This document shows, piece by piece, positions 1 through 20,094 of a stretch of 32,000 nt of DNA. Each line of letters begins with the position of its first letter. Position 1 is the first letter of the stretch. The DNA comes from Candidatus Scalindua sp. (lineage in GTDB: Bacteria > Planctomycetota > Brocadiia > Brocadiales > Scalinduaceae), in NCBI GenBank assembly GCA_031316235.1, contig JALDRA010000001.1, forward strand, positions 3,720,001 to 3,752,000, read 5' to 3'. A program made the translations under genes and the position numbers. Under the pieces are notes generated by a model. That model had not been told where the DNA came from and did no database searches. It saw only the letters and a list, made by a program, of their open reading frames with translations.

Positions 1-441
1 TCGTTTTTCCCAGTTTTCAATAAGTTCGGGAATTATTTCTTTAAGTTCCTCACGATACCACTCTTTCATTATTTCATGCCGTTTGATTATCGGTGTTCCG
101 GGCCTTACATAAAGGTCTATATAGGTTTTGTTTTTCAATACTACTTTAGGCGGGGCATCTGCTTCAATGATGTTCAGCAAACATCTTCTGCCCTGGAAGT
201 AATGACTTTCTCTGTCCTTGTATTCTCTTGGTGATACTCTCTCTTGGCCTTCAAATTTACGTTGGTGCCGTTTTATCCACCCTAATTTTGCTATGGTAAA
301 TAAGCGGATTGCATCTTCATTTACTCCTAACGGTGCAGCAATGCGGACCCTTCCTGTAGGGGGGTAAACAGCAAGGTGTATATTCTTAATGTCTTTACGA
401 ACAACATCGATTTTAATGTTGCTGATGGTGATTTGCTCCAT
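1..441 (-). CDS. YgjP/DUF45-type (M48-like) metallopeptidase, N-terminal 147 codons; gene runs past the window start
   Basis: Own minus-strand translation from ATG 441-439 gives MEQITISNIKIDVVRKDIKNIHLAVYPPTGRVRIAAPLGVNEDAIRLFTIAKLGWIKRHQRKFEGQER..., open to position 1. The ATG overlaps the hsdR stop (TAATG). This family often trails type I R-M operons. The HExxH motif would lie outside the window. Confidence 0.6.
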   Translation of the reverse strand, partial: MEQITISNIKIDVVRKDIKNIHLAVYPPTGRVRIAAPLGVNEDAIRLFTIAKLGWIKRHQRKFEGQERVSPREYKDRESHYFQGRRCLLNIIEADAPPKVVLKNKTYIDLYVRPGTPIIKRHEIMKEWYREELKEIIPELIENWEKR

Positions 442-3400
442 TAATAATCTCTTTGATTTTTTACCAGGTCAAAAATTTTGTGGACTTCACTTTCTTCTGT
501 AATACCGTATTTTTCTAACACTTCCGCAATTGCAAAGCGAACCTCTTTGCTTTTAATTTTATGGTCTCTCCAGCCATCTTTTTTGGTTATAAGGATTGTA
601 TGGTCTAGTTCGATTGGCAAATCCTCATTTTTGCCAAGGTTGTCATACAAAGCCCTCTTTGCATTTGTATTGAGAGAAGCAGGATATTCGGCTGTTGTGT
701 CTGGTTTTTTAATCTTTGCTGCAAGCTCAATGATATTCTGCAAGTATTTTTTGTATTCCGAAGCCGCTTCTTTTCTCAGTTTGATTAACTCGTCCAAAAG
801 CACGCTCATTTTTTCGTAATACATCGGGTTGGTAGGGCTTTCCTCAATGATTACTTTCCTTAGATTATTTTCGATGGTTTCTGCCATTGCATCTTTGTTG
901 CCTTTGATTCTTTGAGGCAAATCATTGATAATATCCTCTCCTCTTTCAATCAACAATTCTACTAAACTTAAATCATCAAAGTTGGCCAACATTTGACTCT
1001 CTTCTGCTCCGATGTAGCTGTCAATCAAATGACGCATGGCAGGTTCGTACTGTTTTAAATCAACATAGTCACCACTGGCGAGCTGTATTTCCTTACGCAG
1101 ATTTTCAAAGTGTTTGATGTCATTCTTGATTTGCCCGGTTTCCTTTTCGGTGTAACCTGCTTCTTTCATTTCATCGGCTATGCTGGCATAAGCCCGAATG
1201 AGTGCAATAGTGAGCTTATACAAGGCAACCCGTTTTGGTTCGGTGTCTTTTAGTTCGTCAGGATTTTCGGTGTTCCCGCCACAGAAGTAACGAATATAAG
1301 TCAGGGTATCTTTGGGCGGCTCTACCGGTTCGCACAACGCCTTAACGGCTTCCAATGCTTCGTCCAATCGTTCTTTGCCTTTCTTCAAACGGTCTTTGAG
1401 CAAACCTTCCACATCCGCTTTTTCATAAGCATCAAATGCACCAGAAGTGTAATCCACGAATGCGCTTTCAAGACTCTTAAACAAGTCCATGTAGTCGATG
1501 ATATAACCGTAGTCTTTATCATCACCATCTAAACGGTTTACCCTGCAAACCGCCTGAAACAATCCGTGGTCTTGCATATTCTTGTCAATGTATAGATATG
1601 TGGCGGAAGGAGCATCGAAACCGGTGAGCAGTTTGTTTACCACTATCAGTAATTTCATCTGAGCCGGCTCTTCTACGAATTTTGTCTTTACCTCTTTTTC
1701 AAATTGCTCTACCTTGTTAATGGCGGTATCGGGGTCTTCATTAAAATAATCTGCCAGCATTTCCCGGTAAATCTCAAAACGCTGCAATTTCTCGGTATAT
1801 CCTTCGCCTGATTCTTCGCCTTTAATGTCGGCATGGGTGGGGACAAATGATGTGATGATGGCGCAATTCTTCAGACCTGCATTTTGAAATAGTTCATAGT
1901 AACGGCAGGCATTGTAAATACTATCAGAAATCAACATGGCATTGCCTCTGCCATTTTGCAGGCGTTCTTTTTTCTCCATGTCGAGTGTGATGTCCATTAC
2001 GATTTTCTCTAACCGTGTCCTTGAGCTGAACACTTTTTTGAGCGTACCCCATTTCTGTTTCAGTTCAGTCCTGGCAAAGTCGGTCAGTCCACGGGTTTTC
2101 AGCTCAAACCATTCATCAATTTTCTCAAACGAAGTGATTTTCTGCTCAATGTCTCTGGCTTCGTAGCGTAAATCCAACACGACTTTGTCATTTACTGCTT
2201 CATCAAATCTGTAGGTGTGAATGTATCTGCCGAATATTTCCATACTTGTCTGCTTATCGACCTTCAAGAGCGGTGTTCCCGTAAATCCGATGAATAAGGC
2301 ATTGGGCAGAAATCCGTTCATGGCTTCATGCAGCTTGCCCGATTGTGTACGGTGGCACTCATCCACAAACACATACATATCGCCTTTGGCTTTAAAGTCG
2401 GTTGGAATACTTCTTTTTAAATCCTCTAAATACTCATCTACATCTCCTTCTTCTTTTCCTCTGAACTTATGCACCAGCGAACAGATGAGCCAGGGTGAGT
2501 TGCCGTTGAGTTTGTTCAGTAAATCTTTTCCGCTTTTGGTGCGGTAGATTTGTTCAGAAACACCGTTATAAACTTTTTCAATCTGCTCGTCTAATTCTTC
2601 ACGGTCGGTAATGATAAGCACTCTACCGTCTGGATTAAATTCTCTTATCCATTTGGTGAGCCATACCATTATTAAACTCTTGCCGCTTCCCTGAGTATGC
2701 CAGATTATACCGCCTTCTTTGCGTTTTACATGGTCTTGTGCCGCCTTGACGCCGAAATACTGGTTATGCCGGCACTGTTTTTTGATGCCACGGTCATACA
2801 CAATAAAGTCGTGCAACAGTTCGATAACGCGCTCCTTATTAAGCAGTTCCACAATGCTTTTATCCAACGGATAATCGTATCGGGCAGCTCTTTCTCTTAT
2901 GGGTTTTGTGAGCTGCAAGAGATAAGCATCGTTCTTATTGACCTCCTCGCTTACCTCCTTCCATTTCAAGTAATATTTCTCTCTGGTTTCAATGGCTCCG
3001 TAGGCAATACCTTCGATATCGTTTCCTGCCATCACATACTGGATAGTAGAGAAGAACGGCTTGATGAAAATGTGTTTCTGACTGTCTAAATTCTGACGGA
3101 TACCTTCAGAAATGGAAACGGTGCTTCGTTTAAGCTCCAGCACTCCCAAGGCGATACCGTTAACATACAGTACAATGTCGGGGCGTTTGTTGTGGATACC
3201 CTTTATGGTAACCTCTTCGGCAATGGCAAAGTCGTTTTCCAACGGGTTATTCCAGTCAATGAGCCATACGGTTTCTCTATTGTGCCCGATTTCTGGTTGC
3301 ACAGTTACGCCGTAGCGAAGCATGGAATAGACTGCTTTATTTACATCGTAGAGTGATCTGCTCTGGTCACCCGCAACTTTGCCGAACTCATACAGGGCTT

Positions 3401-3581
3401 TTCCTATCAGGTTCTTGCTATATCCTTTTTTTGTAAGCCATGCGGTTAAGATCTCTTCCTCAATGTTGCTGTTAACTTCCCGCTCTTCCCAGTTGCCCAG
3501 GTAGCGATAGCCTAATTCGTTCTGGAAAAGGGCAATTACACGCTTTTGCGTTTCCCGTTCTTTTTTGCCGATGTTACTCAT
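441..3581 (-). CDS. hsdR: Type I restriction enzyme R subunit (HsdR), 1046 aa
   Basis: N-terminal PD-(D/E)xK motif (DIVLYVNGIALGVLELKRS). SF2 helicase motifs are TQGSGKS (Walker A) and DECHR (motif II). The start overlaps the hsdS stop (ATGA) and the stop overlaps the next gene's start. Confidence 0.95.
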   Translation of the reverse strand: MSNIGKKERETQKRVIALFQNELGYRYLGNWEEREVNSNIEEEILTAWLTKKGYSKNLIGKALYEFGKVAGDQSRSLYDVNKAVYSMLRYGVTVQPEIGHNRETVWLIDWNNPLENDFAIAEEVTIKGIHNKRPDIVLYVNGIALGVLELKRSTVSISEGIRQNLDSQKHIFIKPFFSTIQYVMAGNDIEGIAYGAIETREKYYLKWKEVSEEVNKNDAYLLQLTKPIRERAARYDYPLDKSIVELLNKERVIELLHDFIVYDRGIKKQCRHNQYFGVKAAQDHVKRKEGGIIWHTQGSGKSLIMVWLTKWIREFNPDGRVLIITDREELDEQIEKVYNGVSEQIYRTKSGKDLLNKLNGNSPWLICSLVHKFRGKEEGDVDEYLEDLKRSIPTDFKAKGDMYVFVDECHRTQSGKLHEAMNGFLPNALFIGFTGTPLLKVDKQTSMEIFGRYIHTYRFDEAVNDKVVLDLRYEARDIEQKITSFEKIDEWFELKTRGLTDFARTELKQKWGTLKKVFSSRTRLEKIVMDITLDMEKKERLQNGRGNAMLISDSIYNACRYYELFQNAGLKNCAIITSFVPTHADIKGEESGEGYTEKLQRFEIYREMLADYFNEDPDTAINKVEQFEKEVKTKFVEEPAQMKLLIVVNKLLTGFDAPSATYLYIDKNMQDHGLFQAVCRVNRLDGDDKDYGYIIDYMDLFKSLESAFVDYTSGAFDAYEKADVEGLLKDRLKKGKERLDEALEAVKALCEPVEPPKDTLTYIRYFCGGNTENPDELKDTEPKRVALYKLTIALIRAYASIADEMKEAGYTEKETGQIKNDIKHFENLRKEIQLASGDYVDLKQYEPAMRHLIDSYIGAEESQMLANFDDLSLVELLIERGEDIINDLPQRIKGNKDAMAETIENNLRKVIIEESPTNPMYYEKMSVLLDELIKLRKEAASEYKKYLQNIIELAAKIKKPDTTAEYPASLNTNAKRALYDNLGKNEDLPIELDHTILITKKDGWRDHKIKSKEVRFAIAEVLEKYGITEESEVHKIFDLVKNQRDY

Positions 3582-4521
3582 ACCAATCTTATTTTTCCCG
3601 TTAATAAATTCTGCATCATCCCCTCCTTTATCATTTTGTACTTCTCCAGTTTCTTTTTCAGGGCTTCTATTTCGGTATCCATGTCGGAAAGGATTTGGGT
3701 GATATTGGTTTGTTCTTTTATTGTAGACGGAATCGAAATCTCAATTTCTTTCAAGTTTGTTTTAGAAATACCAAATACTGAAACACCTGTTGATACTCTA
3801 ATCAGGGCATCTTTTACGCCTTTATAATTGCGCAAGTATCCCTTGAAACCATCTGCTAGAATATTTTTATCGCATCTTAGTAAAAGAGTATGAAGTCCGG
3901 CTATTATTTTTCTTTTACCTATATTTTTAATTTCAATGCAAGCTCCAAGACCTTCATAATCCTCTGAAGCATCAGCAATAACTAAATCACCATTTTCAAG
4001 TAAAGGAACACCAGAAATTTTTCCTTTATCAATAAAAGGCAGTTCATTCTTTGAGCAATTGAGAAAACAATTCCATCTTGTATGAATATCTCCATAGTGG
4101 ATATATTCTACTTCACCGCTTTCGAGTAAATCAGCTCTTGCATTATTTGCTGTATTTAGAAATTTGAATATTTCCCCCAACTTCTTTGTTACCCACCCCT
4201 CTTTCGGTTTCAGCAACTCCTGCATTGCTCCTTGCTTGATGTTTCCCTTTTTGGCAATGAGTTTTTCTAATTGGGTAATGAGCGCATCGGCATCGTTTAA
4301 GGCGGTGGCAATGGCGATTTGCTCGGCTTTGGTGGGAACAGGAATTTTAATTTTTATCAAATCCCTTGTATAAATTGCAGCCACACTTGTTGTGCCTGTT
4401 GCAATCCCTCTTAATTGATAAAGCGAGTTTTTTGTGTTGAGTATGAAATTCATAAAGAAGTTAGAGGAAACATCCTCTGTCTTGAATACAAACCGCATAA
4501 TATTTGAGTTAAAGAAAGCTA
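3578..4521 (-). pseudogene. hsdS: hsdS C-terminal fragment (end of TRD1, central conserved region, TRD2, C-terminal conserved helix)
   Basis: Contains HsdS conserved-region strings (IPVPTKAEQIAIATALNDADALITQLEKLIAKK and IPSTIKEQTNITQILSDMDTEIEALKKKLEKYKMIKEGMMQNLLTGKIRL). The apparent GTG start at 4528 lies inside the IS terminal repeat, so it is not a native start. Confidence 0.9.
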
Positions 4522-5742
4522 GTGTCACGTCAAGCTAGAATTGTCGTATATAATAGATTATAATATCTTCATAATTAAATTTTTTTCGGGAGATTTAGAT
4601 TATGAAGAAATACATAGTAACTCTTGATTGCGATGAACGTAACAGGCTTGTTGCTTTAACGTCTAAAGGGATGCATAGATCCCAAAAGATACTCAATGCA
4701 TTACTATTATTAGCTTGCGACCAGGGTGAGTATCAGGGCAAACGTTCGACCAACGTTGAAATTGCCCGTGTTCTTAAAATAAGCATGAAGAAAATTGACC
4801 GGGTAAAGAAAAGATTTGTTGAAGAAGGTTTTGAAGTTGCGCTTAATGGACGCAAAGGCAATCGAGTATATGAAAAGAAGACAGATGGTGACTTTGAAGC
4901 CCACCTGGTAGCGTTAAGTTGTAGCGAGCCGCCAGAAGGTTTTGCAAGATGGTCTCTGCGATTATTAGCAGACAAGGTAGTAGAACTTGAATATACTGAC
5001 AAAATTTCCCACGAAACAATACGCCGTATATTAAAAAAAACGAAATTAAGCCCTGGCAACGAAAAGGTTGGGTAATACCGCCAAAAGAAAACGGCAGTTT
5101 TGTCGCTAACATGGAAATGGTGCTGGATGTATACAAACGTCCATATGACGCTAAGTATCCAGTAATATGTATGGACGAGTCACCAAAGCAACTTATATCA
5201 GAGACAAAGATGCCAATTTCTGCTTCACCAGGGCAACCGGCTAAGTATGACTATGAATATAAGCGTTGTGGAGTGTGTAATATTTTTCTGGCCTTTGAAC
5301 CATTGGCCGGGAAACGTATAGTAAAAATAACAGAAAGAAGAACTAAACAAGATTGGTCCTATTTTCTGGAAGACGTTGTTAATACATATGGTCATGCGAA
5401 CAAAATAACATTAGTAATGGACAACTTGAATACTCATGATGCTGGATCGTTGTATGAAACGTTTGTGCCGGATAAAGCAAAGGAAATTTTAGATAAATTT
5501 GAGTTTGTCTACACCCCAAAGCATGGTAGCTGGTTAAATATGGCAGAAATCGAGTTGAATGTACTTGCTGGACAGTGTTTAAACAGGCGGATTGATAATA
5601 TTACAAAGATAAAAAAAGAAGTACAGTCATGGCAGAAATTTAGAAACAATAAGAAATCAAAGGCTAACTGGCAGTTTACTACGATTGATGCCAGGATAAG
5701 ATTATCTAAACTTTACCCGACACTTGATGATTGACGTGACAC
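4522..5742 (+). mobile_element. IS630-family insertion sequence (1221 bp) inserted in hsdS
   Basis: Terminal inverted repeats are GTGTCACGTCAA (4522-4533) and TTGACGTGACAC (5731-5742), extendable imperfectly to about 25 bp. They are flanked by a TA/TA duplication (4520-4521 and 5743-5744), the IS630/Tc1 hallmark. The transposase stop codon sits in the right IR. Confidence 0.9.
4602..5734 (+). CDS. IS630-family transposase encoded in two frames (4602-5075 HTH part; -1 frame to 5734 DDE part)
   Basis: The N-terminal ORF has an HTH. Shifting -1 at the A8 run (5033-5040) reads LKKNEIKPWQRKGWVIPP, the conserved IS630 linker. It continues into the ORF 5111-5734, which has VICMDES, LVMDNLNTH and SWLNMAEIE (DDE-like) motifs. 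The RBS GGGAGA lies 9 nt upstream of the ATG. Confidence 0.85.
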
Positions 5743-6075
5743 TAGTGGCAATTCATTTTTCCAAATGGCAACTTTACCTACTAAATCAAGGGTATTTCTT
5801 GTATTAAAAAGAACATCTCCGTAATAAACTTTATCTGTTTCCGCTGGTTTAATACCTTGTTGGATATAAAATCTTTTCTTTAGCTCAATGTGTCCACGAC
5901 CTAAATTCCCCATTTTTATAAGAATGTATTCAGCTTCTTTATCAGAGTTAGCATAATTCCCACCCAGCTGAGTTGATTGTAATATTTCACCAAGTTCCTT
6001 GATATTCCAATCCACTGGATAAATACCAATATCAGTCTTTTCAAAAGCTACTTTTACTTTCATTGCTTCGACCAT
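5743..6075 (-). pseudogene. hsdS: hsdS N-terminal fragment (first ~111 codons, TRD1)
   Basis: The reading frame ...VAIWKNELPL runs into the IS end. ATG 6063-6061 overlaps the hsdM TGA (ATGA coupling) and is the likelier start. ATG 6075 is the alternative. Confidence 0.85.
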
Positions 6076-8519
6076 ACCAGTCCCATTTGTTTTAGATGGT
6101 TTTCAACTTTGGCCGTTAATTCATCTACTTCGTTGCTCAATTTAGGCATGGGTGCCTCATAGCGTTCTGCCAGTTCCTTGATGCGTTGGGTCAGGCGGTG
6201 GCTGATGTTGTCCATTTCTGTGCGTATGCGCTGCTCAATGCTGTACATCCATTTCCTATCCACCACTATGGTTTTTATTTGATCAATGGTCAGTGTTGGA
6301 TATTTCTTGATAATCAATGCCTCTAGTTCTTTGAGTGCGGCTTTTATTCTGGTTTTTACTTCGGCTTCTTCTTCCATCAGGTTTTTGTAGGCTTGGAGCA
6401 GATCGTATTCTTCTCCATTATCATTATTTCGTTTGCCAAGCTCTTTCATGGCTTTCTGCAAATTGCCTTTGCTTATTTTGCCTTTGTCGTCTACGGCATT
6501 GGCAAGCAAACCATCTTCGCCACCATGTTCTTCCCTCATTTCATCCATCCTGGCGTTCAGCGATTCGGCTTGTGTTTCCGAATCGTCAATGGCTTTTTGC
6601 TCTTTGGCAAAATATTCCTGTATGATCAAGGCAGGGGGTATCAGTCTGCCTTCAAGCCCTTCAATACCCGCCACCTGTTTCACTACCTCTTTATCGCCTT
6701 TCCTGGTTTTCTTTTCCATGCGTTTTACTTCGTTACCCACCTTCCAGCCATCGGCAGAGAGCTCATACATATCATCCTGCATGGCCTCCGCCCAGTAATC
6801 CATCAGGTGCTGATACATGGCGTATTTATCGGTCAACTGTTTCCCTGTATAAAGATACAGAAGGTTTTCAGCAATATTGTGTATTTCCTGCTTAGGGTGC
6901 AAACCTTTATCCAATGCCTTGACGTAGGAGATGGTTTCTCTTTTCCATGTATCAAACACACCATCCATCTGTTTACTGAACGTGGTAAACTCAGGATGGT
7001 GAAAGATGGTGTTTTTTATTTCTTCCTTGGCAATGCACAAAGCGGAATAGTCAGCCCGTTTGCCTGGCTTGAACAAAGTGTTATTTAATGTGGGATATAC
7101 TTCCCAATACCTGCCCAGGTCGTCAATATCTCGGTTGGGGATATCACCCAGCAAATGGGCTTCAATGTCCTCCAGGTCCTCCTCTTCCTGGCTGTCAATG
7201 TAGCGGGGAATGTTCAGGTTGTAATCGTTCTTGGGATCTTCTATTTCTGATATAGGTATGGTGCGTGAATACTTTGGTATTTCAATGCAGTTTTTGAAGG
7301 TGTCCACAATCTTGTGGATATCCTGCTCACGCAGGCGGTTTTTATTACCGTCTTTAATGAAGCCCTTGCCCGCATCTACCATAAAAATGTCTTTGCGGTT
7401 TCCGGCATCTTCCTTATCAATTACGATTAGACAGGCGGCAATGCCTGTTCCGTAAAACAGGTTGGGAGGCAAACCGATAATGCCTTTGATGTATCCCCTT
7501 TGAATAATCTTTTTGCGGATGGTAGCTTCGGTATTTCCACGGAATAATACACCCAGAGGCATTACGATACAGCCTTTCCCTCTGGATTTCAGGGATTTAA
7601 TCAGGTGTAAGAGAAAAGCAAAGTCGCCGTTCTTTCTAGGTGGCAGACTGTCATAACCCTCAAAGCGTTTGTAGATATCATTGGCGGGATCCCAGCCGTT
7701 TGTCCACGCCTTATAACTGAACGGTGGATTGGAAACGGCATAATCAAGCTGTTTGATTTCGCCTGTCTTGTCATCCGTAAACTGTGGCGATGACAACGTA
7801 TTCCCCTGCACAATCTCAGAAGCAGGATTACCGTGCAGCCACATGTTCATGACTGCTAATGCCCGTGTGGCATTGTCGTGTTCCTGGCCATAAATGGAGA
7901 TGGACTTGCCAGCTTCATCCGCTACTTTAAGCAGCAAGGAACCCGAACCGCAGGTTGGATCGTAAACCGTGGTTTGTCCGGTAGTGTTATGAGGATTAAT
8001 ACCAATCACCTTAGCCATGATGCGGGAGACTTCGGCAGGTGTATAGAACTGTCCTTTGCTCTTTCCACTTTCAGTAGCGAAATGCCTCATCAGGTATTCG
8101 TAGGCATCACCCAGAATATCATCACCCTCTGCCCGGTTACTGCTGAAATCAAGTTCTGGCTTTTCAAAAATCCCAATCAGGTTGCTCAGTCTATCAACTT
8201 TATCCTTGCCTTTACCAAGCCTTGAATCATCATTAAAGTCAGCAACCGTTATAACACCTGTCAGGTCATTGGCTTTGGCAAGTTCTCCGATAATCTTATT
8301 GATTTTATCGCCAATGTCCGGCTTCCCCTTCAATTTCACCATATCCTTGAAGCTGCCGCCTTCAGGGATTTCTACCAATGCCCCGCCTTTGTCGGATACA
8401 TACTTCATAAACAGCAATACCAATACATAGTCCTTGTACTGGCTGGCATCCATGCTGCCTCTCAATTCGTCACAGCTTGCCCACAGTGAGCTGTATAATT
8501 CTGATTTCTTTATTGCCAT
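6060..8519 (-). CDS. hsdM: Type I R-M N6-adenine DNA methyltransferase subunit (HsdM), long 819-aa form
   Basis: HsdM N-terminal region (LWASCDELRGSMDASQYKDYVLVLLFMKYVSD). AdoMet motif DPTCGSGSLL. Catalytic NPPF (VSNPPFSYKAW). A roughly 330-aa coiled-coil-rich C-terminal extension follows. Confidence 0.95.
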   Translation of the reverse strand: MAIKKSELYSSLWASCDELRGSMDASQYKDYVLVLLFMKYVSDKGGALVEIPEGGSFKDMVKLKGKPDIGDKINKIIGELAKANDLTGVITVADFNDDSRLGKGKDKVDRLSNLIGIFEKPELDFSSNRAEGDDILGDAYEYLMRHFATESGKSKGQFYTPAEVSRIMAKVIGINPHNTTGQTTVYDPTCGSGSLLLKVADEAGKSISIYGQEHDNATRALAVMNMWLHGNPASEIVQGNTLSSPQFTDDKTGEIKQLDYAVSNPPFSYKAWTNGWDPANDIYKRFEGYDSLPPRKNGDFAFLLHLIKSLKSRGKGCIVMPLGVLFRGNTEATIRKKIIQRGYIKGIIGLPPNLFYGTGIAACLIVIDKEDAGNRKDIFMVDAGKGFIKDGNKNRLREQDIHKIVDTFKNCIEIPKYSRTIPISEIEDPKNDYNLNIPRYIDSQEEEDLEDIEAHLLGDIPNRDIDDLGRYWEVYPTLNNTLFKPGKRADYSALCIAKEEIKNTIFHHPEFTTFSKQMDGVFDTWKRETISYVKALDKGLHPKQEIHNIAENLLYLYTGKQLTDKYAMYQHLMDYWAEAMQDDMYELSADGWKVGNEVKRMEKKTRKGDKEVVKQVAGIEGLEGRLIPPALIIQEYFAKEQKAIDDSETQAESLNARMDEMREEHGGEDGLLANAVDDKGKISKGNLQKAMKELGKRNNDNGEEYDLLQAYKNLMEEEAEVKTRIKAALKELEALIIKKYPTLTIDQIKTIVVDRKWMYSIEQRIRTEMDNISHRLTQRIKELAERYEAPMPKLSNEVDELTAKVENHLKQMGLVWSKQ

Positions 8520-8832
8520 ACACTAGCTTCGTTCTGCTTTTAAACAGTGCTTCTTCGAGAAGTAGTCATCAATCAAAATTTTAACCTCAAAATTAGCGGA
8601 TCATATTAATATACTTTACCAAATATAACAACAGCTTAATTTTAAGTAATATGTGTTCGATCAACTCGCAGCCAAACTACATACTATCGGACAAGAGTAA
8701 ACACACAAAAAAACGCCACAGAATCGCCTACACAGCACTTGAAATACCCACGCTATATTGAACCATGAGCAGCCCCGAAAATCAGGATTTTGAAGGTGTG
8801 TAAATATCTTCAAGGGCTTCCTGTTAGATCCT

Positions 8833-11800
8833 TCACTCTTTAAAAAACTCCAGGCCTCTCAACACTTTATTTAAAATAGTCTCTGTCTTCTTTGTAAGTC
8901 TTTTAAAACCATATTTTTCCATAACCTCTCTTATAAGCTCTCCCTTATCCAAACCAGGTCGACTATCTTTAATTTTCTTCGCTACAGTACAGAGCTCATT
9001 CCAGGGTATTCTTTCAATTGACCGGCCAAGATGTTCACGGATAACATAGTCATCTTGAGTATGTGTCTTAACAACCATCCTGCTCTGACTCTTCGATTCT
9101 GAATGGTCAGCAACCAGAAGATCAAAATTACTGGTTAAATCAGACATACACTGTTCGAATATACGTCTAATTTGCCCGCCTAGCCTTTTGATTCGAGCTT
9201 TCTCCAAATAGATGTGGTATGCATGTTCTGCTATCATTGGTCCGTGTTCAGCCACGATAAGCTTTAAGTATTTCGATATCTGTTCAGGATTGGAGTTCCG
9301 GGGATCAGGATATATCTCTGCAATCTCTGGATTGGATGTTTGTTGCCTTAATGAAGACTGCTGAAAAATTTCTTGTTGTACTGGACTTTCCGTCGATGCT
9401 TCCCTCTTGCAAGTTGCAGCTAAAGGTTGCTTACTGGTCAGCTCAACGTGTGACTTTTCTAATGGAGATTTCTCTTTCGAAACATCCGGCTTTATTTTGA
9501 ATGTTTGCTCAGTCAGATACTCTTGTGTTGGTTCCGAATTGTCTGTTTTAACAACCTTACCTTTTTCTATTTGAACGACACATACTTTCTGATGTTTTCC
9601 GCAGACATCTACATCGACCTCATCATCAATAGTTTTGTCGATTAAAGCAACAGCTGTTGGGTGAATCCTGGAGAAAATTAGGTTTTCAGGTTCAGAGTGC
9701 TCCTCTGTTATTACAACAGTAACGTAGCCACCAGTACTATCTTCAAGGCTAAGAATAACCCTATCTCCAACAGCAATTACCTCATCACTTTCCAAAGCTT
9801 CGATTGCATCTTCTTCAGGCTCGTTGAGAGTGGTGTTTACGGACCTAAATTCGGTGTATGCAAAACTTTTCGCTTGATTTCCTTGTGGAAAAATCTCCAT
9901 GGTTTCAAGTTTTTGTATTAGGCTCTTCAGACACCCCTCTGGATTGTATTTGTAACTTGATGCCCAACACCGCCAGAACTTCCAACCAACTCTTTCAAGA
10001 ACCTTCTGCCTAGTCCAGTCTTCAAGCCATTTTTCGGGCCCATGAAACTGATCCCCATCAAGTTCTATTGCGAGTCTGCGATCATTATTTCCCTCTACGA
10101 CAATATCGATTCGATAATTACCCACCGGCACCTGTGGAATAGCACGATAGCCTCTATTTGTCAGTTCAGCGAAGACTTTACGTTCAAACGATGAATCACA
10201 GAGCTCCACAAGTTCTTTATCTACATTGCACCGCACAGGCATAGGTTCTTGAAAATGACGAATTAACTTCGCTTTGAGGTCTCCTGGTGTTAACTCATCC
10301 AAGCCAACGCTTCTGACAAGATAGAGCCGATCTCGTGCTCGGGATGCTGCAACGTTAAAACGCTGCTCGTTTATCCTCATAGTAAGAGCCCGCGATTGGC
10401 CGGGGCTGGCAACCATGCTCAAAAATATAATCTCTCTCTCTCGACCTTGAAAAGTCGCTGAATCTCCACATATGATTCGATGTTTAAGATATTTTTCCTG
10501 GCCTATTCGATCTAAAAGTTTTTTTTGGATGAATGCGGCTTGCTTTCTGCCAATAAGAGAAATAACACCAATGCTTCGTGCTTCATAACGATTTTCGGAA
10601 ATGAGTTTCTCAATTTCATCAATTATTACTTCAGCTTCTTCATAATTCAAATCACCTTTTTTAAGACCATTTTCGACCATGATATCGACCAAGGGAGGAT
10701 CAATCCTCTCTGAGACCTTTGGAATGCGTAAAGGATGAATGGTTACTCCTTTATAAAACTGAAAACTAAATCTGATGATTGGTTCCACGCACCTGAAATG
10801 CTCATTTAGGATAGTTTTATTTCCAGGAAAAACCGCGCTGGCAAGATCATATAATGAATACCCCGGTAACATAATGTCTTCAAAAGGATGTCCCCCAAGA
10901 TAATTGTGTTTAAGTTGAAGGAACTTTTTAAATTCAACAAATGGTGCAGTTGGGCTTACTTGACGGTCATCGCCAACAATTAGTAGCTTTTCTCCTCTGG
11001 CTATAGCAGGTAGTTCACGGATATCACATTGCGAGGCTTCGTCAACAATGACAAGATTGAAGAAATTAAACTCCGCAGGTAGTACTTCTGAAACGCGCCA
11101 ACTAGGCATAATCCAGCAAGGAATTGCCTCCGCACATTGCAGCATAGCCTTTTGTGCAGCACGCAAAAAAATTGGAGCCTTAATGCCAGTTCCTCTCCCT
11201 ACATTCGAGATTGCCGACATAAATTTCGCGAGACCGGACTTTGCCTGGTCAGACATAGATTGGCATAGCATCAAGAACGTGCGTTTCTTAACAACATCCT
11301 CAAAAACTTGTTTCATACGGCTTTCCTTTTCTTGACGGTTTGCTTCAAGAGAAATTAATTGGTCCTGAACATCACGCAAGCGAAGTACTGTATTCAGACG
11401 AGCCCATCTCCACACCTCCTTCCAATTCAGGAGATGTTCCCTATCAAGTTCACTAAATATTTCTTGACGTAGAGCACTGGACCAATTTATAGCCCCACTT
11501 TTCCTGAGTTTTTCAGTGACCTCGTGGATTGTTTCAAAGTTACTCGCTAAAGCCTTAAGATCCCTTAATCTAGCCATCTTTGAGCGCCATATTTCTTGAA
11601 TGTCCTGATTGCCTAAATCTTCCGATCCGATACTTTTTGTAAGTAGATTGATTAATTCTTTGGCTTCGTTGCAATCATATCGTTCCAAACGTCTGATAGC
11701 CTCGCTCCTCACACTTTCCGATTTCGACAATCGTACCATGGACAAATTTTGATTGATTACATGAACAGCCGCGTTTAAGTCCTCATGTTTCGGTTCTATA

Positions 11801-14427
11801 CGATAAAACCCTGAAGTTTTAGGAAGCACCTTGTCAATCCCCATCCAAATGTTCTGTGTGTGCTTGATGGCAAAACATTCCGCTTCCTTAAGTTGATCAC
11901 TAATTACTTCAAAAGTTTTCGCGGCACTGTTCAGTTCACATTTCGGAATTGGAGCTTCATTGGCTATTGCATTCCATCTAACGACTAGCTCGTTACACCT
12001 ATCCTCAAAGAAAAGAAATCCCTCTATGTGATCCCAATCCTCCTTGGAAACAGCCTCCTTACCTAGAATCGTTATTGACTTCACGATTGACTTAGTACGC
12101 TTGTTGAAACTCTTGAGTACAGAAAGAGGCCTTTTTCCTGATTTTCCACGTCCGACAGCTGCTCTCAAAACAGCTTGTTCGGCTGCTCCATTTGCATCAT
12201 GATCAACTGGTTTTCTGAGGTACTTCTTTCGTTCTTTTACGATAGAATTTAGTTCAGGTCGCAATTCATCTAAAAGCTCCAACCAACTTGGCATTTGACG
12301 GTAAGGATAAATGAGACATTCAAAAATAATTTTCAACCATGTCGTATCAGTTTTCCTAATCCAGTGTTGGATTTCTTTAATCTCTCGAACTAACAAATCT
12401 GCTGTCTTGATTGTTTCGATAGATTCATCCTTAAAGCGAGGGATATCTTCTCTTAGTGCCATGGACTCAAGTTTCATGGCGGTAACAAGATCTTGGTGAA
12501 TACGTCCAATTGTTTCTGTGTCTGGCAGGTCGTTCACTGCGGGAATATCAGTATTAAGGTATTCAATCTCTTCTCCGACCACCTGTTTAGCATGAATTAA
12601 CTTTTTGATGTCTTCGTCATCGAAAAGCGGTGTGTATTTCTCATCAGGGCCTAGTTCATCGGGAAACCATATAAAATTATCCCTGTTTTCCACAACCCAT
12701 GTGGCTAAATCACTCATATTCTCAAAATCAATATTGGCCCATTCAAGTTTCATTGGCTCTAGTTGCTTCCGAGCAAAATCCTCAACTTGCAGATCAATCT
12801 TTTGTATATCCTGTTGCAGTCTGGAGACCTCTTCTTCTCCTATTTCGATCTCTCTGTAGATTTGTTTTTCCCGTCCTTGAAGACCAACCACCTTCACTTG
12901 CAAGGTTTCGATGGCTGTTTTCTGTTGCTGCAAACCTTCACGGTCATTGGAGACCATTGAAATAATCAAAGGTTGAACTTCATTAGGAATCTGTGATTTA
13001 AGCACTTCAAGCGCTGTCTCAGATTTAGCGGTTACGAGAACTCGACGTCCGGTAGCAAGGTAATGACATACAATATTGGCTATAGTATGTGTTTTACCCG
13101 TTCCCGGAGGTCCCTGAACAACCACGCCGTCAGCCTTTTCCAGCCTTTCTATAATATCTCGCTGTGCATCATTAAATGGTTTAGGAAAGTAGATAGTATT
13201 GCTCTTTTCTCGATCCTGAGAAATCTCACCTACGAGCGATCCAGAGCCTGATTGGCTATTTAGTAGACCTAAACCCCATCCGTCGATATTTGGTCTTTCC
13301 GCTGAGGGTTGCTTAACGAACTTTATCGCAACCGAACCTTCTATCTTTTCATCTGATTTGGCTTTTTCCTGAAAATGCTCTAGGTCCTGCACTAAATAAT
13401 TACTTCTCCGAGCACGCGCATAAATTGCCCAGGTATCTGTTATCGCTAGTGATTCTTCGGGGCGAGGGAGGGATCTGATTGTTACGTCTTTAACGACATC
13501 AGGAACAAAATAAGCATCCTTTGACAGCAAAGATACTGCATTTTTCAAAATATCTACAAAACTTGTCGGGTCCGTGGGCTGAATCGTTTTGCCTTCGGCC
13601 TCAAGCTGATGAAGATACTTTTCAAAATATTCCTTGAGAGGCTTTACTCCTGAAATTTGTAATGCTTCATAAGGTGCCGTAAAAAGTTGTGGACGTTCGC
13701 GTGTCACGCTTCGTGGTCGAATTTTTAAGGTCTGCGTATCGCTGGCAAGCTCAATCTCTACAAGTGTTTCCAATAATGGATGGCTGATACACTTGTCTGA
13801 TTTCGGAATTTTCCAGACTACGTAGCCGATTCCCCAAACTACCTCGATAGGTTGCTCAACTTCTCCAGCCATCATCGTCTGATTAAGGGAAAAAAACTTT
13901 TCATATATGGCTATTGTTTCTCTTCTTGGTTTTTCTTCGGCTGCCCATGGTAGCCACTTCTTTTTCAAGTAATTGTCGAAGGCTATCTCAAGCTTGGTGT
14001 TGTCTTTAGCAAACAGTCTGATATCGAATTTACCTTGCTCACGGGGTGATTCCAGAACGTTTTCCCTCGAAGCCACTCCCTTTTTGAACATCTCATTTGT
14101 TTCTTCACTGGATGCGGTGACGATAATACACTTTTTGAGTGTTGGATTACTTCCTGGTTGATGGCTTTGATTCAACCAAGGCTCAAGCATTTCGACCGGT
14201 GGAGGAGCTTTTCCCTTATGTAATCGCTCTATCTCAAGCCAAATCTGACCACCGTCTTCAGAATCAGGTGCATGATTGACTCCTGGTAGTGCGTAAAGGT
14301 CACTCTCTAAGACTTTGACATTCCGATATTCTGACACCGAGAAAACGGGCTCTTGGCCCATTAAAACAAGTTGCTTGATATACTCGAAAGTATCGATTAA
14401 ATTTTTTCTTAGATCAGACATATCCAA
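8833..14427 (-). CDS. Giant (1864 aa) DUF4011-like N-domain + Upf1/DNA2-like SF1 helicase + Vsr/DUF559-type endonuclease + GreA/B-C-like domain + DUF3320-like tail
   Basis: Walker A VVVQGPPGTGKTH (about 13086-13127). Motif II VIVDEASQ (about 11027-11052), some 680 aa later and separated by coiled-coil insert. Motif VI FNVAASRARDRLYL (about 10321-10360). Nuclease core YRIDIVVEGNNDRRLAIELDGDQFHG (about 10053-10117). GreA-C-like stretch VIAVGDRVILSLED...IHPTAVALIDKTIDDEVDVDV (about 9560-9790). The track start 14427 is TTG, and ATG at 14421 is an alternative. Confidence 0.85.
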   Translation of the reverse strand: MDMSDLRKNLIDTFEYIKQLVLMGQEPVFSVSEYRNVKVLESDLYALPGVNHAPDSEDGGQIWLEIERLHKGKAPPPVEMLEPWLNQSHQPGSNPTLKKCIIVTASSEETNEMFKKGVASRENVLESPREQGKFDIRLFAKDNTKLEIAFDNYLKKKWLPWAAEEKPRRETIAIYEKFFSLNQTMMAGEVEQPIEVVWGIGYVVWKIPKSDKCISHPLLETLVEIELASDTQTLKIRPRSVTRERPQLFTAPYEALQISGVKPLKEYFEKYLHQLEAEGKTIQPTDPTSFVDILKNAVSLLSKDAYFVPDVVKDVTIRSLPRPEESLAITDTWAIYARARRSNYLVQDLEHFQEKAKSDEKIEGSVAIKFVKQPSAERPNIDGWGLGLLNSQSGSGSLVGEISQDREKSNTIYFPKPFNDAQRDIIERLEKADGVVVQGPPGTGKTHTIANIVCHYLATGRRVLVTAKSETALEVLKSQIPNEVQPLIISMVSNDREGLQQQKTAIETLQVKVVGLQGREKQIYREIEIGEEEVSRLQQDIQKIDLQVEDFARKQLEPMKLEWANIDFENMSDLATWVVENRDNFIWFPDELGPDEKYTPLFDDEDIKKLIHAKQVVGEEIEYLNTDIPAVNDLPDTETIGRIHQDLVTAMKLESMALREDIPRFKDESIETIKTADLLVREIKEIQHWIRKTDTTWLKIIFECLIYPYRQMPSWLELLDELRPELNSIVKERKKYLRKPVDHDANGAAEQAVLRAAVGRGKSGKRPLSVLKSFNKRTKSIVKSITILGKEAVSKEDWDHIEGFLFFEDRCNELVVRWNAIANEAPIPKCELNSAAKTFEVISDQLKEAECFAIKHTQNIWMGIDKVLPKTSGFYRIEPKHEDLNAAVHVINQNLSMVRLSKSESVRSEAIRRLERYDCNEAKELINLLTKSIGSEDLGNQDIQEIWRSKMARLRDLKALASNFETIHEVTEKLRKSGAINWSSALRQEIFSELDREHLLNWKEVWRWARLNTVLRLRDVQDQLISLEANRQEKESRMKQVFEDVVKKRTFLMLCQSMSDQAKSGLAKFMSAISNVGRGTGIKAPIFLRAAQKAMLQCAEAIPCWIMPSWRVSEVLPAEFNFFNLVIVDEASQCDIRELPAIARGEKLLIVGDDRQVSPTAPFVEFKKFLQLKHNYLGGHPFEDIMLPGYSLYDLASAVFPGNKTILNEHFRCVEPIIRFSFQFYKGVTIHPLRIPKVSERIDPPLVDIMVENGLKKGDLNYEEAEVIIDEIEKLISENRYEARSIGVISLIGRKQAAFIQKKLLDRIGQEKYLKHRIICGDSATFQGREREIIFLSMVASPGQSRALTMRINEQRFNVAASRARDRLYLVRSVGLDELTPGDLKAKLIRHFQEPMPVRCNVDKELVELCDSSFERKVFAELTNRGYRAIPQVPVGNYRIDIVVEGNNDRRLAIELDGDQFHGPEKWLEDWTRQKVLERVGWKFWRCWASSYKYNPEGCLKSLIQKLETMEIFPQGNQAKSFAYTEFRSVNTTLNEPEEDAIEALESDEVIAVGDRVILSLEDSTGGYVTVVITEEHSEPENLIFSRIHPTAVALIDKTIDDEVDVDVCGKHQKVCVVQIEKGKVVKTDNSEPTQEYLTEQTFKIKPDVSKEKSPLEKSHVELTSKQPLAATCKREASTESPVQQEIFQQSSLRQQTSNPEIAEIYPDPRNSNPEQISKYLKLIVAEHGPMIAEHAYHIYLEKARIKRLGGQIRRIFEQCMSDLTSNFDLLVADHSESKSQSRMVVKTHTQDDYVIREHLGRSIERIPWNELCTVAKKIKDSRPGLDKGELIREVMEKYGFKRLTKKTETILNKVLRGLEFFKE

Positions 14428-15651: not shown

Positions 15652-18102
15652 TTATCGTTCATAACCGGTGATCCTGATCGTATTACTACCAGCTAAACTT
15701 ATAGTAGAGCCAGGTGGTACTACAATTGGTGAATTTAAGGACGTAGAACTGGGGGTAGATGCTATACTACCTTGCTGGAAATAATTAACTCCATCGATTA
15801 CCAGATCGCTGGCCGCACTTTGTACATATATCGTGAGTATATATAGTGTCTTTCCTGTTGGAACCGTATAGCTGCTACCGGTTTTTACTTCAAGATTCTT
15901 AATCGTTACCCCAGCCTCTACTTCAAAACCGGTAATTCTATATCCCCAAAAAGCACCTCCGCTTATAGTTGCCCCAGATGGCACAACCATCGGAGAATTT
16001 AAGGAAGCAAGACTTGAGTAGAAATAAGGAACTCCATTGATTTTGAGTTCTTCAATAGTTCTAGTGGGGCCCATGAGAGAGAGTATATATAGGGTTTTAC
16101 CAGTTGGAACTGTATAGTTGCTGTTATTGGAAAGGTCAATGTTTTTTGTTGTACCATTAAGACCATCTGGAAAAGAAAAATTAATATTATTGGATCCATT
16201 CACAGTAAGCGTTTGTTTGGGTTCTGACGTCCCAATACCTACATTGCCATTGCTATAGTAAGTATTATCTCCGTCTGGTAACCAGTGCGAATCCCCAGGA
16301 TCACCCTTATCACCTTTCTCCCCCTGCAATCCAGTATCACCTTGATCACCTTTCATCCCTTGGATGCCCTGTACTCCTTGAAATCCCGTATCGCCTTTGT
16401 CACCCTTCTGGCCCTGCGCACCATCTGCACCCGCTATTCCCTGAGGACCAACCGGACCCTGTGCACCATCAGCACCCGCCGGACCAATCAATGTTGCTGT
16501 GGTCTGTAGTGTCCCATCAGGAAACATAATCCCATCGGTTCCAGGTGTCCCTCCCACATGGAGCTTTGCTATCGGATTGGGTTCTCCAATGCCGACGTTT
16601 CCCCCAGCCGTAACTCTCATCATCTCGGCACCATATTCCAGGGTAAAGTCATTGGTGTCTGTCTCTTCCAGCTCCCAGAAAACACCATTTCCCCCTGTGT
16701 CCCCCAGGCGAACTGTATCAAGCAGGCTTATTCCTTTCACATGAAGCCTGGCGTCAGGGATCGTTGTTCCAATACCGACGCTGCCATTCTTAAGTACCGT
16801 CATGGCGTTCCGGCGATTCGTATCATCACTACCGTTCCCGATTACAAACAACGGATCAGTTTTTACCCACGATAACGGGTCTCCGGAAATAACATTAAAT
16901 TGACCGACAACCAATGAGGACAAGGACTGTGCGGTGGTCTGTAATCCCATGGCAGTTGAATATTTTCCGCTTGCAGTTGTGGCGTTTCCCATGGCGGTTG
17001 ATGTATTCCCGCTGGCAGTTGCCCATCTTCCCATTGCGGTTGAAGACCATCCGCTTGCAGTTGTACCTCCTCCTATGGCGGTTGAAAAGCGTCCGCTTGC
17101 TGTTGTTCTCCATCCCGTTGCAGTTGAATAATTTCCAATCTGTGCAGAATCCCATTGATTACCATCTACATGGCCGGCCCTGAAGGCAGCTTTCCTCGGG
17201 TACCATATCAGTCTTGCACCTTCTCCTGTTGTGTTGAGATCAGTACCGGAACCAAAAGTTCCCCTTGCAAGTATACCGCCATCATTATCGAGTGAAAGCC
17301 TGAATTGAGGTCTGGACGTGCCTATTCCCACATTACCTTGAAGGTAATACGTGTTTAACCCGTCAAGCAACCAGTGCGAATCACCTTCAGGCCCCCGTGG
17401 ACCTGTAGCACCGGCATTACCTGCCGGCCCTTGTGCCCCTGGAATTCCTTTCGGTCCCCGAAGCCCTATTGCACCAACCGGTCCTGTCGGTCCTGCCGGT
17501 CCTTGAGGCCCAGAAATACCTTGCGGACCTGCCGGTCCTGCAACAGTCGCCGATGTCTGCAGCGTGCCGTCAGGGAACATGATGCCATCAGTTCCCGGAT
17601 TACCACCAATGTGCAGTCTGTGAAGCGGATCAGGAACATCAATCCCCACATTACCATTTTCCTTTATTGTCAGATTCTCACCGCTGTCATCATCAATAAA
17701 TCTTAACGCACTGCCATCTCTCAGGATCGTAGTGTTTTCACGGTAAGACTTATCAATCTTACTGTTGCCTTCGAGTCGAATTGCACTTGAGACCTCATCT
17801 TGTGTGTAGACATGGAGATCTACCTCGGGATTAGCTGTCCCGATCCCGGTGCCAGGAGTTGTTTCAGGTTCTTCTTTATATCCGGATGCTGCTGTTGTAT
17901 CCAGACTGTCATTGAGAGATTTTTCTTCATACTTCGTTATAATCTCTTCCATGTCTTCCATTTTTGCTTTGAGTTCTTCAATCTGTTTCTGTTGTGCTTT
18001 GATTGCCTCAATGAGTGATGCTTCATCAGCAAAAACTATCTTGGAATTAGGATAAATAGCAGATACTAACAGGAATGTAATTACAATAAATAATTTACGC
18101 AT
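15652..18102 (-). CDS. Secreted collagen-like / YadA-head-like / tail-fibre-like repeat protein (816 aa)
   Basis: Signal peptide [25 protein letters not shown] with RBS GGGGGAGGG. Coiled coil is present. There are two GXY collagen-like tracts (about 17383-17545 and 16285-16480). TASG/STAMG repeats (Hep_Hag-like) lie at about 16900-17160. Modules are duplicated ([45 protein letters not shown]). Confidence 0.85.
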
Positions 18103-18165
18103 GGTACCCTCCCCCTAAAATAGATATGCAATGTATTGAAATGAAGCATCGTAGTTTACCATTCT

Positions 18166-18188
18166 TGTCAATATGACAAACTATGACA
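18166..18188 (-). promoter_or_regulatory. Shared upstream motif copy P2 (TGTCATAGTTTGTCATATTGACA), upstream of the collagen-like gene
   Basis: Contains TTGACA and the perfect palindrome TGTCA-TAT-TGACA. It lies 64 nt upstream of the ATG. The -10 is unclear. Confidence 0.45.
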
Positions 18189-20091: not shown

Positions 20092-20094
20092 TCA

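Follow-up and report, generated by a model that had tools for sequence, protein, structure and literature searches.

What does a gene do whose very large product joins a helicase to a nuclease, and which lies directly beside a type I restriction-modification (R-M) operon? The question is raised by a 32,000-nucleotide (nt) stretch of DNA from the anammox planctomycete Candidatus Scalindua sp. (contig JALDRA010000001.1, positions 3,720,001 to 3,752,000; called here, at its full length, the window, whose own numbering is used throughout). A preliminary description of this DNA had put forward a candidate single-gene defence function. Our own reading, which we hold with moderate confidence, is that the protein is predicted to be a stand-alone (autonomous), ATP-driven helicase-nuclease acting against phages or other mobile genetic elements. 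To judge from its sequence, it appears to be built on the same plan as the anti-phage proteins Hhe and ProA and to belong to a separate, uncharacterised sister family. We favour defence because of the homology to ProA, Hhe and PDC-S37, the invariance of the catalytic motifs, the defence genes among the neighbours and the horizontal spread of the family.

The gene is intact and is not a chance open reading frame (ORF), since more than 3,300 database proteins match its product at E<=1e-10 and the catalytic motifs are invariant. The ORF of 1864 amino acids (aa) in the preliminary description is thus real (8833..14427, minus strand), but its start was misplaced: it opens with the first in-frame start, a TTG at 14427, while an ATG two codons further on, at 14421, gives a product of 1862 aa (stop codon 8833-8835) that is 100% identical over its full length to the NCBI protein P0001, from a Candidatus Scalindua sp. 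metagenome-assembled genome (MAG). All residue numbers below count from this ATG. The name that NCBI gives to P0001 is nothing more specific than ‘AAA domain-containing protein’. With the exception of two partial sequences, the best 120 relatives share 35-67% identity with the target over 81-100% of its length, and the helicase and nuclease motifs are invariant across them.

Profile searches gave significant matches, over most of the length of the protein, to the single-gene anti-phage proteins ProA and Hhe. The NCBIfam equivalog model for ProA (NF058533) aligns with residues 418-1841 at E=4e-66 (profile positions 652-1903 of 1903), the NCBIfam model for Hhe (NF042953) aligns with residues 1098-1542 at E=1e-44, and the PADLOC profile for Hhe gives E=3e-29. 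The PADLOC profile PDC-S37, which has no curated cut-off, matches residues 859-1856 (positions 683-1532 of 1550) at E=8e-67 and 224 bits. The target falls far short of both curated cut-offs, scoring 223.4 bits for ProA (cut-off 1500) and 152.5 bits for Hhe (cut-off 2000). Its relatives behave in the same way: five of them, at 35-47% identity to the target, score 211-267 bits for ProA, relatives score 148-186 bits for Hhe, and all those tested against PDC-S37 remain at the same low level (214-254 bits). Because the target and its relatives alike reach about a tenth of the ProA and Hhe cut-offs, the whole family is best regarded as a sister group of ProA, Hhe and PDC-S37, and not the target as a divergent member of one of them. 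Neither NCBIfam nor PADLOC assigns the target to a defence family. For Hhe, defence by a single gene has been validated, with activity on lambda, T3, T7 and PhiV-1 (10.1101/2022.06.16.496414; see also 10.1101/2024.10.10.617714), and its Vsr-nuclease mutant E1731A is inactive in defence (10.1101/2022.06.16.496414). Our literature searches found no paper on the target's family, none mentioning PDC-S37 and none that defines the NCBIfam ‘ProA’, the results for this last name being concerned with the proA proline gene or with the word ‘proactively’.

With respect to the motor, residues 410-1395 make up an intact Upf1-like helicase of superfamily 1B (SF1B) and of the 5' to 3' type, the features of this class that we find being Walker A, a DEASQ-type motif II and motifs III to VI of the AAA_11/AAA_12 type. 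The Walker A sequence (QGPPGTGKTHT, residues 436-446, nt 13084-13116) is invariant in the relatives; the DEASQ motif lies at residues 1127-1131 (nt 11029-11043); and the further helicase motifs VGDDRQVSP, LNEHFRCVEPIIRFS, TFQGRE and RFNVAASRARDR are invariant or almost so. Both AAA_11 (residues 416-545 plus a second stretch) and AAA_12 (1199-1369) exceed their Pfam cut-offs, and among proteins of solved structure in the PDB, sequence and family-profile searches find Upf1/NAM7, Sen1, IGHMBP2, DNA2 and Aquarius as relatives of the motor. The helicase had been described as split and this is confirmed by the distance of 684 aa between K443 of Walker A and D1127 of DEASQ. The insert responsible is conserved, with an occupancy of about 1.0 in 120 relatives, is rich in tryptophan (invariant W585, W695, W796, W816, W945, W980 and W1004), and has the ProA and PDC-S37 alignments running through it. 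Since it is poor in proline and glycine, with runs of up to 86 aa free of both, it is probably a helical domain, though not necessarily a coiled coil; perhaps it is an expanded version of the 1B/1C-type accessory region of Upf1-like helicases.

A helicase of this class invites comparison with the Mokosh-type systems, in which a COG1112 RNA helicase would sense phage RNA and drive a nuclease effector, and the preliminary description had drawn that parallel. The PADLOC profiles MkoA and MkoC do match the target (E=1e-29 and E=1e-25), and the helicase is of the same Upf1-like class. Nevertheless, these matches take in nothing but the blocks of helicase motifs (residues 410-527 and 1203-1367), neither the protein nor its neighbours contain a phospholipase D (PLD) domain, and the alignments of ProA and PDC-S37, besides having much better E-values, are two to three times as extensive. 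We have therefore rejected Mokosh membership, and consider a mechanism of this sort very improbable.

The nuclease is as well marked as the motor. The Pfam family MTES_1575 matches residues 1412-1505 at E=1e-30 and 106 bits (cut-off 38.2), with DUF559 as a weaker match, and Foldseek superimposes the model of the domain on the structures 3hrl and 3r3p, the latter the catalytic domain of I-Bth0305I, with TM-scores, normalised to the target, of 0.77 and 0.82, respectively. Among the relatives D1439, E1453, D1455 and D1457 are invariant, H1460 is nearly so, and a motif R1471-Q1472...E1476...W1480 is conserved as well. The Vsr-fold endonuclease is thus intact, with every catalytic residue in place, and the earlier assignment to a Vsr/DUF559 fold is supported by the profile, the structural matches and the invariant acidic residues.

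Downstream of the nuclease is a domain resembling the C-terminal domain of the transcription factors GreA and GreB. In the target itself the Pfam family GreA_GreB C-terminal scores below its cut-off at residues 1545-1619 (18.7 bits, cut-off 26.9), but it exceeds the cut-off in the relatives P0064 and P0088 (29.6 and 33.4 bits). The model of the domain has a predicted local distance difference test (pLDDT) score of 95-98, and Foldseek matches it with a probability of 1.0 to GreA, Gfh1, GreB and Rnk; it superimposes on 2pn0_D with a root-mean-square deviation of 2.7 A over 76 columns, has 28% identity to 2etn_B (Thermus aquaticus Gfh1), and the profile of the target's relatives reaches the E. 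coli GreA structure 1grj at E=1e-3. The family motif (H/S)-P-x-(A/G)-x-A-L-(L/I)-G...D-E-V resembles the GreA sequence 124-SPIARGLIGKEEDDVV. Structure and profile therefore both bear out the Gre-like beta domain of the preliminary description. The model contains no N-terminal coiled-coil finger with an acidic tip of the Gre type, residues 1521-1545 being disordered (pLDDT 44-48), so that the protein is not a Gre factor and seems to have borrowed only the docking domain. To our knowledge, binding to RNA polymerase is the only known job of a Gre C-terminal domain, and by analogy we infer that this one may be a docking module for RNA polymerase.

Such a role has precedents, although the preliminary description knew of no defined role for a Gre-like module in proteins of this kind. 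Kaur et al. described TPR-GreA/B-C-PIN (‘TGP’) proteins as conflict systems and proposed that their Gre-C domain engages the beta-prime coiled coil at the secondary channel of a virus-hijacked RNA polymerase (PMC8195603), and the Bab/Agp system no longer defends against T5 when its GreA/B-C domain is mutated (10.1101/2024.11.07.622273). Judged by spacing, H1587 and L1593 of the target correspond to S628 and L634 of Agp. The text of PMC8195603 contains neither the term ‘Vsr’ nor ‘SF1’, and our literature search found no paper that describes a Gre-C domain inside a helicase and Vsr-nuclease protein; automatic names given to relatives by the JGI mention both GreA/GreB and Vsr endonuclease.

The extreme C-terminus is modelled with confidence (pLDDT >90) as a helix-helix-helix-strand-strand unit plus three-helix elements. 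A Pfam scan of this tail in the target detects neither DUF3320 nor any other family. However, BLASTP aligns it (E=4e-18) with residues 1776-1933 of P0064, a stretch where DUF3320 is above its cut-off, and the tail was therefore rightly called DUF3320-like, by transitive homology. In the MTES_1575 proteins DUF3320 has been described as a pair of winged helix-turn-helix (wHTH) domains (PMC3710099). The tail is carried by only some 30% of the 120 closest relatives, and it is aligned by both the ProA and the PDC-S37 profiles. In the Gre-bearing but tail-less relative P0036, the ProA alignment ends together with the nuclease, at profile position 1719, and it is the remaining ~184 positions that match the tail of the target. 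By these coordinates ProA and PDC-S37 would pass straight from the nuclease to the winged-helix tail, and therefore the Gre insertion is apparently specific to the target's family.

At the other end of the protein is an N-terminal domain of quite a different character. It is modelled with confidence by AlphaFold (pLDDT 84.6, predicted template modelling score 0.74) and, although the preliminary description had suggested DUF4011 among the families to look for, that family is found neither in the full protein (E<=0.1) nor in the isolated N-terminal 415 aa (E<=10), which match no Pfam family at all at the latter threshold. Foldseek searches with the model gave no match at E<=0.001 in the PDB, where the best is at 0.046 and the top entries are injectisome and LAGLIDADG proteins with TM-scores of ~0.1, and none at E<=0.001 in BFVD, where the best (1.4e-3, TM-score 0.23) is another ‘AAA domain protein’. 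Very few of the 120 closest relatives lack the domain, which has invariant Trp, Arg and Glu residues. When 1.84 billion representative proteins are searched with it by phmmer, 720 match at E<=1e-3, which puts the size of the family at about 720 clusters at 50% identity. Full-length matches come from proteins of 1500-1900 aa and are always N-terminal, the shorter matching proteins having the look of fragments. Being restricted to the N-terminus of such proteins, the domain is a signature of the family, and we propose that it is a sensor or regulatory module. DUF4011 apart, the domains named in the preliminary description hold nearly throughout, on the evidence of Pfam, Foldseek and the profiles of the relatives.

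Table 1. Features of the helicase-nuclease gene and of its surroundings in the window (residues are counted from the ATG at 14421).
Feature	Position (nt)	Strand	Basis or remarks
Complete coding sequence	8833..14421	-	1862 aa + stop; ATG start
Family-specific N-terminal domain (aa 1-379), then disordered linker (aa 380-406)	13285..14421	-	AlphaFold model, alignment
Helicase domain 1A, first part (aa 410-545)	12787..13194	-	Pfam AAA_11, AAA_30, AAA_19
Insert in helicase domain 1A, ~555 aa (aa 546-1100)	11122..12786	-	Alignment, composition
Rest of helicase domain 1A and domain 2A (aa 1101-1395)	10237..11121	-	Pfam AAA_12
MTES_1575/DUF559 (Vsr-fold) endonuclease domain (aa 1405-1510)	9892..10209	-	Pfam, Foldseek
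GreA/GreB C-terminal-like domain (aa 1545-1621)	9559..9789	-	Foldseek, family profile
Disordered low-complexity linker (aa 1627-1697)	9331..9543	-	pLDDT 34-45, low alignment occupancy
C-terminal helical winged-helix-like tail, DUF3320-related (aa 1699-1861)	8839..9327	-	Model, BLASTP
Type I R-M operon, directly downstream of the helicase gene	441..8519	-	Pfam
hsdM	6060-8519	-	N6_Mtase/HsdM_N
hsdS, piece of 120 aa	5713-6075	-	Methylase_S
hsdS, piece of 316 aa	3578-4528	-	Methylase_S
hsdR	441-3581	-	HSDR_N/SWI2_SNF2/T1R_D3
IS630-like element inside hsdS	4602-5734	+	HTH_32 ORF 4602-5075, DDE_3 ORF 5111-5734
Probable surface-protein cluster	15652-21629	-	Collagen triple-helix + YadA-head (816 aa), C-type lectin (294 aa), Ig-like/PPC (427 aa)
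MazF/PemK toxin gene	24265-24708		Overlapped upstream by 84-aa ORF 24593-24847

The ends of these proteins vary much more than the middle. Among 90 relatives recovered in genomic loci, nearly half (44) consist only of the core, that is, the N-terminal domain, the helicase with its insert and the nuclease, in ~1500-1580 aa. The core is followed by a Gre domain in 23 of them, by both a Gre domain and the tail (the target's own arrangement) in 10, and by the tail only in five; the other eight are partial or unclassified. Given this constant core with varying ends, the Gre domain and the tail are accessory modules, the former being absent from about half of the family and present in ~40% of the members examined.

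Equally variable is the company in which the gene is found. For the closest relatives of the target (66-67% identity) the sources are MAGs of Eubacteriales and Desulfomonilaceae, in phyla other than that of its planctomycete host. A scan of 185,579 species genomes found at least 578 confirmed relatives, the best among the matches listed having only ~40% identity; the 80 loci that were kept are spread over Acidobacteriota, Gemmatimonadota, Planctomycetota, Nitrospirota, Verrucomicrobiota, Bacillota, Spirochaetota and all of the major proteobacterial classes. Moreover, 381 plasmid records carry a relative. This patchy, cross-phylum and plasmid-borne distribution is the pattern of an accessory gene that moves horizontally.

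In the window itself, the helicase gene and hsdM share a strand, with the helicase gene 314 nt upstream. The gap between them (8520-8832) has no terminator-like or promoter-like site and the gene is possibly co-transcribed with the type I R-M operon. The R-M system may, for its part, be inactive or altered in specificity, its hsdS being split by an IS630-like insertion sequence. HsdM, at 819 aa, is ~300 aa above the usual length; its residues from ~450 to 819 have no Pfam match, are rich in Glu, Lys and Leu, and may form a coiled coil. On the other side of the helicase gene are a divergent 144-aa ORF without known function and then genes whose products are probably cell-surface proteins. The preliminary description had placed the gene between a type I R-M operon and debris of toxin-antitoxin and mobile elements. 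The operon is certainly there, but the debris is not where it was put: the IS630-like element is inside hsdS, and the MazF module, the sole toxin-antitoxin in the window, is 10 kb from the helicase gene. The 84-aa ORF that overlaps mazF is probably the antitoxin gene. Just beyond, a segment of 1.85 kb (24850-26700) has no ORF of 80 aa or more and a GC content of 33-39%; we found no Rfam family, tRNA or significant repeat in it.

Could the protein then be no more than an accessory of the methylation-based system next to it, either as a back-up nuclease for type I R-M or BREX or as a modification-aware (type IV-like) partner? The arrangement in the window, with no terminator-like site before hsdM, is what one would expect of such a partner, and several relatives are similarly placed. 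P0013 and P0019 (42% identity) are embedded between hsdS and hsdR, in operons of the form hsdM-hsdS-RT-DUF3644-X-(AbiEii)-hsdR, where X is the relative and RT a reverse transcriptase; P0008 (58% identity) comes directly after a 1419-aa MmeI/Eco57I-type R-M enzyme; the copies on Acinetobacter plasmids start 64 nt after the BREX gene brxL; and on the Sphingobium plasmid the relative comes after the genes of a methyltransferase and a BPTD_3080 restriction enzyme. Nevertheless, the partner is a different one in each case (type I, type IIL-like, BREX, or methyltransferase with restriction enzyme), many loci have no methyltransferase at all, and in the window it is hsdS that has been split while the helicase gene is intact. 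Furthermore, other defence genes, RT-DUF3644 and AbiE, are embedded in the same hsd operons, as is ordinary behaviour in defence islands. When the ORFs of 95 loci were searched by phmmer with Hsd seeds from the window and from locus L004, a type I R-M gene was found near only three of the 80 genome loci, a lower bound given the insensitivity of single-sequence seeds; an obligate partnership with type I R-M was rejected on this count, and we judge an accessory role of any of these kinds to be improbable.

The RT-DUF3644 pair is an observation in its own right. In Pelagicoccus albus and in a second, unrelated genome, an RVT_1 gene (462 aa) and a DUF3644 gene (482-486 aa) overlap each other directly upstream of the helicase-nuclease (L004 7145-9974, L006 7141-9982), and all three are nested between hsdS and hsdR. 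The pair looks like a reverse-transcriptase module of the DRT/Abi type that travels with the helicase gene. On the Acinetobacter plasmids, in A. baumannii AYE plasmid p3ABAYE (L096 7272-12002) and in L102, a 1576-aa relative comes after a complete type I BREX locus; this BREX-adjoining gene is found in many clinical Acinetobacter plasmids of ~77-95 kb, where it is annotated only as ‘AAA domain-containing protein’.

Other relatives, too, have defence or mobile-element genes among their neighbours. P0005 is near IS66 and HEPN_AbiU2; P0014 lies between Fic and a toxin-antitoxin pair; HARE-HTH, methyltransferase, SIR2, Ham1 and Dam genes come after P0036; and P0047, P0064, P0087 and P0119 are found among Mrr fragments, transposases, plasmid-type replication genes, RmuC, terminase and resolvase. 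The Variovorax plasmid copies are beside Wadjet-like genes, RmuC, GIY-YIG and AbiE. At 16 long-form chromosomal loci, the neighbour families listed include AAA_15, AAA_23, Pkinase and Metallophos and, in PADLOC terms, PD-T4-6, mad3, mad6 and PDC-S46. An RmuC-domain gene overlaps the start of P0119 by 50 nt (L014 8548-10050), and RmuC genes are also close to relatives in L087 and on the Variovorax plasmid of L100. On two Variovorax plasmids (L100 7783-7983, L101 7795-7992) a hypothetical ORF of 65-66 aa shares 4 nt with the beginning of the helicase-nuclease gene, a hint that the translation of the two is coupled. P. aeruginosa, too, has a small conserved gene next to its large DUF4011 gene (PMC10250203). 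As a general feature of the family, a small upstream partner ORF was rejected, there being none on the coding strand in the window.

These defence-rich surroundings must be set against a second and rather different picture. The target could instead be a genome-maintenance enzyme associated with RNA polymerase, which clears R-loops or stalled and backtracked complexes or takes part in transcription-coupled nick repair; in other words, a bacterial counterpart of the Sen1/Upf1-type helicases with a nuclease of the Vsr repair type. The best solved relatives of its motor (Sen1, Upf1, IGHMBP2, DNA2 and Aquarius) would agree with this, as would the Vsr fold, which is that of a repair nuclease, and the Gre-like domain, which points to RNA polymerase. 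There is also, should it be akin to Hhe, the case of a P. aeruginosa DUF4011 helicase, whose gene flanks a defence hotspot as a conserved core gene and does not belong to the variable cargo (PMC10250203). Many chromosomal relatives, too, are surrounded by housekeeping genes of the UvrD and YchF type. This is the outcome of a qualitative census, by Pfam and PADLOC scan, of 136 neighbour ORFs at 22 species-level loci, mostly of short-form proteobacterial chromosomal copies, the figures resting on the 25 most frequent families listed, with no matched control and in a form where single defence genes would not show. The recurrent families were UvrD (4 members), YchF (3) and integrase (3), the high-scoring single matches included RecA, AlaRS and GroEL, and all the PADLOC models among the 25 listed were GajB models that match UvrD helicases. 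In four Psychrobacter species (L035, L036, L037 and L072) the short-form relative is followed, in the same orientation, by ORFs of ~2.2-2.3 kb and then 1089 nt, which may include some of the UvrD-type helicases of the census; this shared layout suggests a stable chromosomal position, unusual for defence islands.

The census and the Psychrobacter layout weigh against a defensive role, and so do several further points. Even the close relatives P0003 and P0006 have surroundings that are either housekeeping or uninformative, and the small number of genome loci with a type I R-M gene found nearby has already been mentioned. Among 50,697 phage records there is a single weak match, and 2.9 million viral contigs contain only nine relatives, a rarity that led us to reject typical phage carriage. 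The scores for ProA and Hhe, at about a tenth of their curated cut-offs, do not allow a simple transfer of function. In the Gre-like domain the serine of the GreA ‘SP’ motif is replaced by histidine in the target, which tells against docking to RNA polymerase. Finally, the contrast between mobile, defence-linked long forms and stable, chromosomal short forms means that part of the family may be housekeeping. The preliminary description had expected homologues to be enriched near defence genes; this expectation is borne out by the nearer relatives and the plasmid copies, but not by the 22-locus census of shorter chromosomal relatives, and the defence neighbourhood thus holds for the target's clade and for the mobile copies, not for the family as a whole.

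In spite of these points, we consider genome maintenance an unlikely function for the target. The family is very patchy across phyla, with the closest relatives of the target in other phyla than its own; on plasmids the gene adjoins BREX, R-M and Wadjet-like genes; the named families closest to it are those of anti-phage proteins; and about half of the members have no Gre domain. A single-gene defence function is plausible, backed by the homology to ProA and Hhe and by the defence genes that adjoin the target and its nearer relatives.

If the protein is indeed a defence enzyme, its parts might cooperate as follows. The motor would load on single-stranded nucleic acid, such as phage replication or recombination intermediates, R-loops or nascent RNA, and translocate 5' to 3', with the N-terminal domain and the large insert providing gating, sensing or autoinhibition. 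The Vsr-type nuclease would nick or cut the DNA that the motor tracks, and the winged-helix tail would hold it. The Gre-like domain would dock the enzyme on the beta-prime rim of the secondary channel of RNA polymerase and so concentrate its surveillance on transcribed DNA, as has been proposed for the TPR-GreA/B-C-PIN proteins. Since about half of the family has no Gre domain, this docking would be an aid to targeting, outside the core activity. The adjoining type I R-M operon would be defence-island company and not a required partner. A stronger version, which we entertain only tentatively and regard as doubtful, is that the enzyme rides with, or is recruited by, a transcribing or hijacked RNA polymerase and uses transcription as its search engine, cutting the template or R-loop DNA either in the wake of the polymerase or in front of it. 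Were this tethered version true, it would amount to a transcription-coupled mechanism of DNA-targeting immunity, and would show how single-gene helicase-nucleases of the Hhe/ProA type select their targets when there is no methylation mark to go by.

In current annotation this family does not figure as defence. If it is defensive, planctomycetes, acidobacteria, many proteobacteria and some Acinetobacter plasmids have larger defence repertoires than have been counted. The family keeps the core of motor, nuclease and winged helix, and adds to it a private N-terminal domain and, in the ~40% examined members noted above, a Gre-C domain, a module that suggests a way for the enzyme to find invading DNA, with transcription complexes as the sensing platform.

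How, then, does this family compare with known systems? ProA is the most similar of them, a single large polypeptide with a collinear helicase, insert, Vsr nuclease and C-terminal winged-helix tail. It differs in its N-terminal part, profile positions 1-650 being unaligned and no alignment starting before residue 411 in either the target or its relatives, and, to judge from the alignment coordinates, it apparently has no Gre-like domain. PDC-S37, a single-gene phage defence candidate of PADLOC v2 and a computational candidate only, likewise aligns over the insert, helicase domain 2A, nuclease and tail; here too the N-terminal region is unaligned and the alignment coordinates indicate no Gre domain. 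The Hhe system of Gao et al. 2020 shares with the target the one-gene design, in which an SF1 helicase is combined with a Vsr-type nuclease with conserved acidic residues. In contrast to the target, it has a DUF4011 domain, its N-terminal half is unaligned, and the alignments stop at the nuclease, before the Gre domain. The preliminary description had seen in the pairing of a helicase with a Vsr-like nuclease a departure from the Mokosh-type systems; the design is already known from Hhe, which needs its nuclease for defence. A helicase with a Vsr-family restriction endonuclease had in fact been described as a conflict-system architecture in 2013 (PMC3710099). Those MTES_1575-type proteins (Anantharaman et al. 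2013) resemble the target in having an SF1 helicase, a Vsr-family endonuclease and two winged helix-turn-helix domains, but their prototype has HEPN and transglutaminase domains, for which we find no Pfam match in the target, and has no Gre domain.

Upf1/NAM7, Sen1, IGHMBP2 and DNA2 have the same motor domains and motif set as the target, and DNA2 is a helicase-nuclease fusion as well. These are, however, eukaryotic RNA- or DNA-processing enzymes with much smaller 1B/1C inserts, and their nuclease, where there is one, differs in fold and position. The TGP and Bab/Agp proteins resemble the target in a different respect, that of a nuclease-fused GreA/B C-terminal domain without the Gre coiled-coil finger. 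Their nuclease is a PIN domain predicted to target RNA, they have no helicase, and they possess TPR repeats and partner effectors; since the target has no Pfam match to a TPR or PIN domain, the Gre-like module alone is common to it and to TGP. Thus the helicase-Vsr design of Hhe, ProA and the MTES_1575 proteins and the presence of Gre-C in defence proteins were both known already, and what is new is the combination, in an uncharacterised sister family, of an N-terminal domain of its own with a Gre-C domain inserted after the nuclease and before the winged-helix tail.

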